64,000 nucleotides of DNA from Magallana gigas. Lineage: Eukaryota. The stretch is from contig NC_088861.1 of NCBI RefSeq assembly GCF_963853765.1, positions 21,484,281-21,548,280 on the forward strand. The letters are read 5' to 3'. The notes beneath the pieces are model-generated. The model saw nothing but the letters and a program-made list of their open reading frames with translations, made no database searches and was not told the DNA's origin. The first letter of the stretch is position 1. Each line of letters opens with the position of its first letter. Shown in pieces: positions 59,285-61,947 of the stretch. Both the position numbers and the translations under genes were made by a program.

Positions 59285-60939
59285 ACTTATATTTGCATTT
59301 TACCACTCGCAAATACCCTGTATTAGCCTAGACCTTGACATTTAGCTATTACATCAAAAGTAAACATTCAGACTAATGTATCTTTTTAATTCACATAGAT
59401 TTGTTAACAGAATCAATGATATGTTATGACAGTAATTCCTTTAAAATGTTATCAAAAACATGTTTTAATTATTACATGTAAATACGTCAATTTTAATGGA
59501 GTTGGAGAAAAACACATGATGTATCGTATAGTGGATTAAATCTATAACGTCATGGAAAAGTATATATAACGTTACACCTTTATGACGTCATAGTATACTG
59601 ACAGAGCAATTGCGATTATAGAGAAATAATTGCAGCTCCTCCGTATGGGCTTACAGTGGGAAAGAACAATCGAAATGCAAATATTAGTTAATAACTGCAA
59701 TAAATGTTAAAATTATCATAAAACTACGTTCTTCATTATCTTGAGAATTAAACAGATCCTCTACATAACGTACGGTAGTTAGTCAAAGGGTAGTACAGAG
59801 AGTGATTTAATTAATCATGTTGATATTGACATTAAGCTACCGGTAATACAATACAAAAATATTTATCCATAAAAGGATAAATACATTTATACACATAGAT
59901 TAAATTTTGCAAATAATATTAGTTTTTATTTTTAATTAAAAAATTAATCTATTTTTTTTCTTTGCCTGTTGTTTTCTATACATTGCATGCATCAACAAAA
60001 GACCTTTGGAAATTTTAAATCATCTATTTACATACTGAACACTGGGAATATACATCTCTCTCATTATTACACATATGCTCCAAGTTTTTAAAAATAAAAT
60101 ATTTTTTAAAAATAAATTTTTTTTCCTACCTACCTACCCTAATTTTTTTGGTCAAGTGACAGGGATCAGGAATAATTTTTTTTTTGGCCTAACGGACAGT
60201 TTTTATTTTTTTTAAATAAAATATGATTCTTCATGAAAGCAAAGTCATTAAATTATATACATTCTATTATGCTTTTTATTTAGTTTTTTTTTTATATCAG
60301 ATACATTGTGTACTTTTTATATGCCTTCTCTCCGGAAAATTTTTATTTGTGAGAAAAATTTTATTTGCCGATATATTTGACAACCTTCTTTGTACTCATC
60401 CTGAAGTTGGTGCATGAACTCCTTGTGGAAAATCGCGGAAAAAACGAGAATCCTATTTTTTGGAACATACCGCGATACAACGGAACCCGCGATATAATGA
60501 GAAGAGAGTATATCAAATTATTTCCTATATTTATCTATAACTTCCTATCGAAAATAGGTGACGTCGTTCAAAACAACTCTGGTTATGGCGGATCCATAAA
60601 ATGTCAAATAGCTCCTAGAATTTTTGTTGATTTGAAAACAAAAAATCACATAAATACATAATGAATTGCTGATTGTTAAACTTAATATAATAAATGAATT
60701 ATATTTTAGGGCAAACCAGTTTTTCTTATGTGAAAAAAAAATGCACTATCAAAAACCGGTAAAGCCAGGATATAAATGGCCTAGTACTCACCAAGTCCAA
60801 TACATGGACAAATTGCAGTGGTTTTAATCCAAGAATACTGTTTGACATCATCATGTGTCTATCTTTTCCCCCTTTTTTTCAAGCTCTGACACTGACAGTC
60901 ATGTCAGATAACCGGAAGTTGTGAAATTTTCCTTGCAGG

Positions 60940-61195
60940 GAGTGTAACTAAAATGGGTAGCGAAACCCGGGGCGGGCCGGGATTTTCGAAACTGATAACC
61001 GGGTTTTTGTTGAGTTCTTTAAAAAATACCCATTTGTTCTGCACGAAATTTGCAGGAATACAAGTTGTAATAAAGTATTCCTGCAAATTTCGTGCAGAAC
61101 AAATGAGTATTTTTTAAGAAATCAACAAAAACCCGGTTATCAGTTTCGAAAATAACGGCCCGACCCGGGTTTCGCTACCCATTTTAGTCACACTC
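60940..61195. mobile_element. 256-bp foldback MITE flanked by a 9-bp target-site duplication CCTTGCAGG (Mutator-like TSD length)
   Basis: Arms of about 120 bp, GAGTGTAACTAAAATGGGTAGCGAAACCCGGGGCGGGCCGGGATTTTCGAAACTGATAACCGGGTTTTTGTTGA..TTCTGCACGAAATTTGCAGGAATAC, around a ~14-bp centre, with 1-2 mismatches. The direct repeat CCTTGCAGG at 60931-60939 and 61196-61204 is not part of the palindrome. Confidence 0.65.
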
Positions 61196-61947
61196 CCTTG
61201 CAGGCGAAGACTAATCACCGGAATATTATAATGACGTTCGCTCTGAAAGACACTTCGTATCGAGATAGACTCACATGCAAAAAGTATGTCATTTTTTATT
61301 ATTTTTAATTTGAATTTTATTTAAAATAAACCTTGATATATTTTTAAGCAGGGACGTATATACTTCCCTGATTTTTTTGTATAAAATTTAAATAGAACAG
61401 CTTTGCAAAATATCAAAGAAACAGTCTGACGTGACCCGGAATGGGTATGTCTACCCTCTATACTATAAAAACAATTGATTTATAGTATAAAGGGTAGAAA
61501 TAAATATATATCGTTCTTCATTTACTAAATTATCTGGGAGCGTCTATGGATCACCAGAGGTTGAAGTCTGATCAAAAAACCTAAATTGCAAACTCATCAA
61601 AAAATTCTTGAAAGAAAAAAAAATTAAAACAAAACAAACATAATGATTCCACAGTAATTTAAGAATCCTCCTTATGCTATGTGCCTGCAATATCTGCCCA
61701 CACAATAAAGTTTTGTAAATTTTGGGATTTAGAATTTATATGAGTTTTATAAACTTATTTTAGAGCAGACGGAGCTTGTAGATATATCGGTGCAAGTTTA
61801 TATGAACTGGAAAATTATGAGCAGAAATCCGTCACAGATGGTCCATGCCAATGGAAAAAAAATGCCACAAGCACATGACCAGCCAGTAGAAATAAGCAAA
61901 CTAAGGATCCACAAGGCAAGCTACAGGTATAAACAATACACAATCTT

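Follow-up and report, generated by a model that had tools for sequence, protein, structure and literature searches.

Our analysis of the window, i.e. the whole 64-kb stretch of DNA under study, revealed a near-perfect palindrome of 256 bp at positions 60940-61195 that is bracketed by the exact direct repeat CCTTGCAGG and is very probably a transposon insertion. With somewhat better than even confidence, we assign it to the non-autonomous class II cut-and-paste foldback or hairpin MITEs, with a transposase most likely belonging to the Mutator-like (MULE/Phantom/Foldback) group; taken by itself, the Mutator-like nature of the transposase that would move it stands at about even or slightly above. 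We infer the mobility of the element, the 9-bp register of its duplication and the superfamily of its transposase from the sequence. The element shows several of the attributes by which MITEs are recognized, namely terminal inverted repeats (TIRs) at both ends, small size, lack of coding capacity and a flanking target site duplication (TSD). Its parts are as follows.

60931-60939, no strand: left copy of CCTTGCAGG, the putative TSD, identified from the sequence and by the repeat finder; its 3' AGG pairs with CCT at 61196-61198
60940-61061, plus strand: left arm of 122 nt with the terminus GAGTGTAACTAAAATGGGTAGCGAAACCCGGG..., without tandem sub-repeats, from the arm alignment
61062-61074, no strand: 13-nt loop AAGTTGTAATAAA that separates the arms and stays unpaired, from the fold and the arm alignment
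61075-61195, minus strand: right arm of 121 nt, matching the left arm in reverse complement with 94.3% identity, from the arm alignment
61196-61204, no strand: right copy of CCTTGCAGG, identified from the sequence and by the repeat finder

The two inverted arms of about 120 bp and the exact 9-bp direct repeat on both sides, which had been claimed in a preliminary description of this DNA, were both borne out. The arms proved identical at 115 of 122 aligned positions, the remainder being six substitutions and one 1-nt indel, and their terminal 32 nt contain a single mismatch. Folded as single-stranded DNA, the segment 60931-61204 reaches -141.6 kcal/mol, compared with -30.2 +/- 3.8 kcal/mol for 200 shuffles of the same segment (z = -29). 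The G+C content of the element amounts to 41%, against 32.5% in the window. Tandem repeats finder (TRF) detected no array of sub-repeats anywhere in 60940-61195, also with the minimum score set to 30, and the open reading frames crossing the element are all of 73 amino acids or fewer and have no homologue. The near-complete palindrome and the loop of only 13 nt suggest that a single transposon end was duplicated in inverted orientation to give rise to the element. The terminal motif AAATGGGTA (60952-60960) returns inverted as TACCCATTT (61027-61035) about 75 nt further inward in the same arm; this pair might represent a subterminal binding-site repeat, with a chance expectation of about 0.25 for a 9-mer match inside 256 bp.

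A hairpin of this kind could alternatively be primarily a structured-RNA gene, such as a microRNA precursor or a precursor of long-hairpin siRNAs, perhaps derived from a MITE and retained for its function. The very stable 120-bp stem agrees with such a role, and sub-threshold matches to miRNA-precursor models were observed over the centre of the hairpin. These matches, however, lie on both strands and involve many unrelated miRNA families, the best of them reaching 63.9 bits where the cut-off is 140, and no Rfam family was matched at its gathering score. Scattered sub-threshold matches are expected for any perfect hairpin, and we regard a primary RNA gene as very unlikely. A long perfect hairpin can also act as a fragile site or as a source of small RNAs, and nothing here indicates either.

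The two copies of the direct repeat are 100% identical and cannot be extended in either direction (T at 60930 versus C at 61195; G at 60940 versus C at 61205). Exact recurrence of a 9-mer at a fixed offset occurs in the window with a frequency of 5e-5 to 1e-4, and then chiefly within simple repeats, and the repeat flanking the palindrome is therefore not attributable to chance. The repeat finder further revealed a feature overlooked in the preliminary description, i.e. at both ends the inverted repeat overlaps the direct repeat by 3 bp (60937-61198), because the ends of the 9-mer, CCT...AGG, are complementary. The boundary between the repeat and the element is therefore ambiguous. In the 9-bp register the termini of the element read GAGTGT. 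A 7-bp register gives the duplication CTTGCAG and the termini GGAGTGT, a 5-bp register the duplication TTGCA and the termini GGGAGTGT, and a 3-bp register the duplication TGC and the termini AGGGAGTGT, while two asymmetric 8-bp versions also yield the observed sequence. Registers of 9, 8, 7, 5 and 3 bp thus all reproduce the sequence exactly, and one copy does not define a unique register. By our reckoning the 9-bp register would require the coincidence of three base pairs (1/64). The odds fall to 1/256 with a register of 7 or 8 bp, to 1/1024 with one of 5 bp and to 1/4096 with one of 3 bp; needing the fewest coincidences, the 9-bp register is the most economical and most likely register of the CCTTGCAGG duplication. 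All registers predict one common empty site, ...TTTTCCTTGCAGGCGAAG..., and under the insertion reading the site before insertion is expected to read ...GAAATTTTCCTTGCAGGCGAAGACT....

This overlap gives some room to a MITE moved by a transposase other than a Mutator-like one, i.e. Merlin, AcademH or, if the duplication were shorter, hAT or P (8 or 7-8 bp), in which case the outer bases of the 9-mer would belong to the terminal inverted repeat. The 3-bp intrusion of the inverted repeat into the direct repeat and the exactness with which the 7-, 8-, 5- and 3-bp registers return the sequence are in favor of such an origin. The shorter registers are nevertheless penalized by the additional coincidences that they demand (1/256 to 1/4096, against 1/64), and in none of the registers do the termini fit the consensus of hAT (YARNG) or that of Transib/CACTA (CAC...). 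We consider a non-Mutator transposase possible and, on balance, unlikely.

Downstream of the palindrome the window contains a second element of the same kind.

61941-62074: second foldback MITE of 134 bp, with 66-nt arms (64 of 66 positions identical) and a 2-nt loop, 740 bp downstream of the 256-bp element

It is flanked by the direct repeat AAACAATACA of 10 bp (or 9 bp) at 61931-61940 and 62075-62084. An open reading frame 1.1 kb downstream of the 256-bp element has homologues in Logan assemblies, which led to contigs L002-L014; these are 99% identical to each other and correspond to a single locus in a related genome, 89-95% identical to the window at 61588-61940 and 62075-62670. The related locus, at 91-94% identity, is devoid of 61941-62074 and reads ...TATAAACAATACAGTATTT..., with a single AAACAATACA compared with two in the window. 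It is a documented empty site for the 134-bp element, with a duplication of 10 bp (or 9 bp), and therefore insertion of foldback MITEs that make duplications of 9-10 bp does take place in this lineage. A verified duplication of that length in a neighboring foldback element counts against the shorter registers invoked for a non-Mutator transposase. The alignment with the related locus spans 61588-62670 only and diverges upstream of 61588, and the site of the 256-bp element lies outside of it.

The two foldback elements have in common the architecture of arms plus short loop, a duplication of 9-10 bp and 11 of the first 18 terminal bases compared in register, and they differ in that the 134-bp element is half the size and has its empty site documented. 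Besides these terminal bases, sequence comparison detected no similarity between the two. An 11/18 match has a probability of 0.0018 per random 18-mer and of about 0.014 after the eight registers tried, and it may be taken as a weak hint at a common transposase-binding end and at the 9-bp register for the 256-bp element.

The block at 61588-62670 (about 950 bp) is the sole part of the 58-64 kb region conserved in the related locus (89-95%), and its homology ends abruptly on both sides; on the upstream side, a repeat resembling 44697-44791 of the window is present in the related contigs. A 61-aa open reading frame within the block shows no detectable purifying selection. We also considered, and dropped, the idea that the 256-bp element might lie in a gene's promoter or 5'UTR, the gene having its ATG at 61237 and an "exon 2" covering 62324-62477. 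Relative to the related locus, this "exon 2" has 0 synonymous and 2 non-synonymous changes along with a compensated frameshift, and 62324-62477 is therefore unlike a coding exon. A further hairpin of 57 bp was observed at 61446-61502, 250 bp downstream of the 256-bp element, with 24-nt arms (92% complementary), a 9-nt loop and no obvious flanking duplication.

Further copies of the 256-bp element were sought at several levels. The 64-kb window contains no second copy, even at low stringency. A 54-aa internal open reading frame used as bait gave no match in exact look-up and homology search, and a 935-aa concatenate of every open reading frame in and around the element gave none in homology search. 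DNA pattern scans for the element returned 0 matches in viral contigs and 0 in prokaryote genomes, and a metagenome scan with a 20-mer returned a single match in a G+C-rich bacterial contig, which has no similarity beyond the 20-mer and is due to chance. An autonomous partner of the element did not turn up in these collections either. The collections scanned are essentially prokaryotic, viral and metagenomic, together with assembly-called proteins, and hardly cover the source genome, so that the absence of other copies weighs little.

The single copy in these collections, along with the richness of the window in inverted repeats and AT-rich palindromes, would fit a palindrome that formed locally when replication or repair went wrong, for instance through template switching or hairpin-primed synthesis, with the 9-bp repeat being microhomology or chance. 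Against this stand the exact 9-bp repeat abutting both ends, which is the expected product of integration at a staggered cut and has a chance frequency of 5e-5 to 1e-4; the G+C content and the occurrence of the sequence nowhere else in the window, which make it look imported; and the neighboring 61941-62074, a proven insertion of the same architecture. The missing copies count for little in view of the coverage described above. Such an accident is quite improbable, and insertion of a MITE is by far the best reading of the palindrome.

The surroundings are eukaryotic and rich in repeats. The window has a G+C content of about 32% throughout and contains microsatellites and many inverted and dispersed repeats, only four open reading frames of at least 120 amino acids and, at 15350-15769, a repeat exon of the Major Vault Protein; no tRNA or Rfam genes were found in it. 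Together with the general architecture of the window, this exon points to a eukaryote and probably to an invertebrate animal. An inverted segmental duplication (6525-9609 versus 26691-23647; 88-92% identity in three collinear blocks) brackets the region of the Major Vault Protein exon. An inverted pair of 717 bp, 36707-37423 and 45561-46277, is 99.9% identical with a 95-aa open reading frame in each copy, and nested inside it is a second inverted pair, 38832-38994 and 44062-44224 (98%). Because the 717-bp pair has no common TSD, its copies probably go back to two recent insertion events of a single repeat family beginning CTATAAACAGGGTATT. Another repeat family (13724-14134, 19519-21690, 47577-47782 and 50621-51866) is both dispersed and tandem, with units of about 165-170 bp and 71-90% identity; its translated open reading frames recur with the motifs ...ISTKFGTKH... 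and ...SPYCGPT.PPGTMI..., and the family is possibly satellite-like or SINE-like in nature.

As the 256-bp element is devoid of coding capacity, its transposase would act in trans. In the mechanism that we propose, a DDE transposase encoded elsewhere would bind the identical termini GAGTGTRACTAAAATGGGTAGCG... of the element and would make a staggered cut, most likely of 9 bp, at the target ...TTTT-CCTTGCAGG-CGAAG.... The element would then be joined in, and gap repair would leave the CCTTGCAGG target duplicated on both sides.

Two degenerate genes of the Pfam family PF20700, "Mutator-like transposase", are present in the window (E-values of 6e-13 to 8e-9).

4391-4696, minus strand: degenerate PF20700 gene (Pfam), adjoining an exonuclease-like open reading frame at 3897-4283
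30178-30901, plus strand: degenerate PF20700 gene (Pfam), followed by a match to an RNase_T exonuclease at 33021-33527

A comparison within the window showed that neither sequence nor termini are shared between these relics and the 256-bp element, and no pair of TIRs and TSDs was detected around either relic. The relics show that transposases of the MULE type occur in this genome, which is in favor of a Mutator-like origin, and a direct link of the element to these two genes found no support in shared termini, TIRs or TSDs. The 256-bp and 134-bp elements, with 11 of 18 terminal bases and duplications of 9-10 bp in common, could also form a single group of hairpin MITEs mobilized by transposases of the PF20700 type, which we regard as improbable. 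If it were true, these MITEs would supply the missing termini and TSD length for a lineage such as "MULE-Mollusca", since neither TIRs nor TSDs are given as known for such animal MULE lineages (PMC6446971, Table 1).

As to age, the intact TSD had previously been taken to suggest a recent insertion. Nothing beyond the intact TSD supports this; an intact TSD sets only a bound on divergence, and the arms differ at 6% of their positions. At the 5% level, the conservation of 9+9 bp would limit the divergence since insertion to less than about 0.17 substitutions per site, calculated as exp(-18d), and the 6% divergence of the arms may already have existed in the source copy or have arisen after insertion. 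By itself, a further insertion of a MITE into a eukaryotic genome rich in repeats and in A+T matters little, and the modest value of the 256-bp element is that of a clear case of a palindromic MITE almost without a loop. Should further copies confirm the 9-bp duplication, it could provide a handle on the termini of an active or once-active Mutator-like transposon of this organism.

Comparison with known transposon families bears on the superfamily. In Merlin elements the TSDs are 8 or 9 bp long, the TIRs measure 24-462 bp and a 5'-GG is conserved (PMC8101967), and AcademH elements have TSDs of 9-10 bp (PMC10045372). Both of these are in line with a non-Mutator transposase. A 9-bp TSD, which the preliminary description called characteristic of MULEs, is thus shared with other groups, and its register is ambiguous here. 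Merlin MITEs resemble the 256-bp element in their TSD of 8-9 bp and in TIRs of up to several hundred bp. The 256-bp element nevertheless has termini that begin with GA... rather than 5'-GG in the 9-bp register, and a duplication of 7 bp would be needed to give GG termini; this length is outside the range of Merlin, which therefore fits poorly.

Classical Foldback (FB) elements of Drosophila are known for 9-bp duplications and for arms that consist of kilobase-scale arrays of tandem repeats. The 256-bp element is similar to FB and to plant foldback transposons, which include FARE and Tnr8 (cited in PMC3169594), in that nearly the whole element is made up of two inverted arms, and to FB in the 9-bp duplication. 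It differs from FB in being short and internally non-repetitive, and the lack of tandem sub-repeats in its arms places it outside FB in the strict sense.

MULEs are characterized by TIRs longer than 100 bp and by TSDs of 8-11 bp, typically 9 (PMC5225508, PMC6446971), and both the 9-bp repeat and the arms of 121-122 nt of the 256-bp element fall within these limits. The closest parallels are Tm1 of Meloidogyne, a Mutator/Foldback family with MITE-like members that have 9-bp TSDs (PMC3169594), and the derivatives of Muta1 in Aedes (PMC5225508). Like them, the 256-bp element is non-coding and has TIRs of more than 100 nt and a 9-bp duplication without an obvious target consensus; its TIR pair is, as in Tm1, diverged by a few percent (94% identity, compared with an average of 93% in Tm1; PMC3169594). 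Contrary to the TIRs of Tm1, which are composed of tandem repeats (PMC3169594), and to the long-TIR MULE families of Aedes, 10 of 12 of which have subterminal tandem repeats (PMC5225508), the arms of the 256-bp element are unique and have no 9-15-bp subterminal tandem repeats, and the element is nearly all stem, with its loop of only 13 nt. The missing sub-repeats, which are usual for animal MULEs, speak for a non-Mutator transposase. Of the claim that the element is a MULE-derived MITE, the insertion of a MITE is well supported, and the attribution to MULEs is plausible and draws only on the lengths of the TSD and of the arms; because a 9-bp TSD and arms of more than 100 nt both fit, a MULE is the best single guess.
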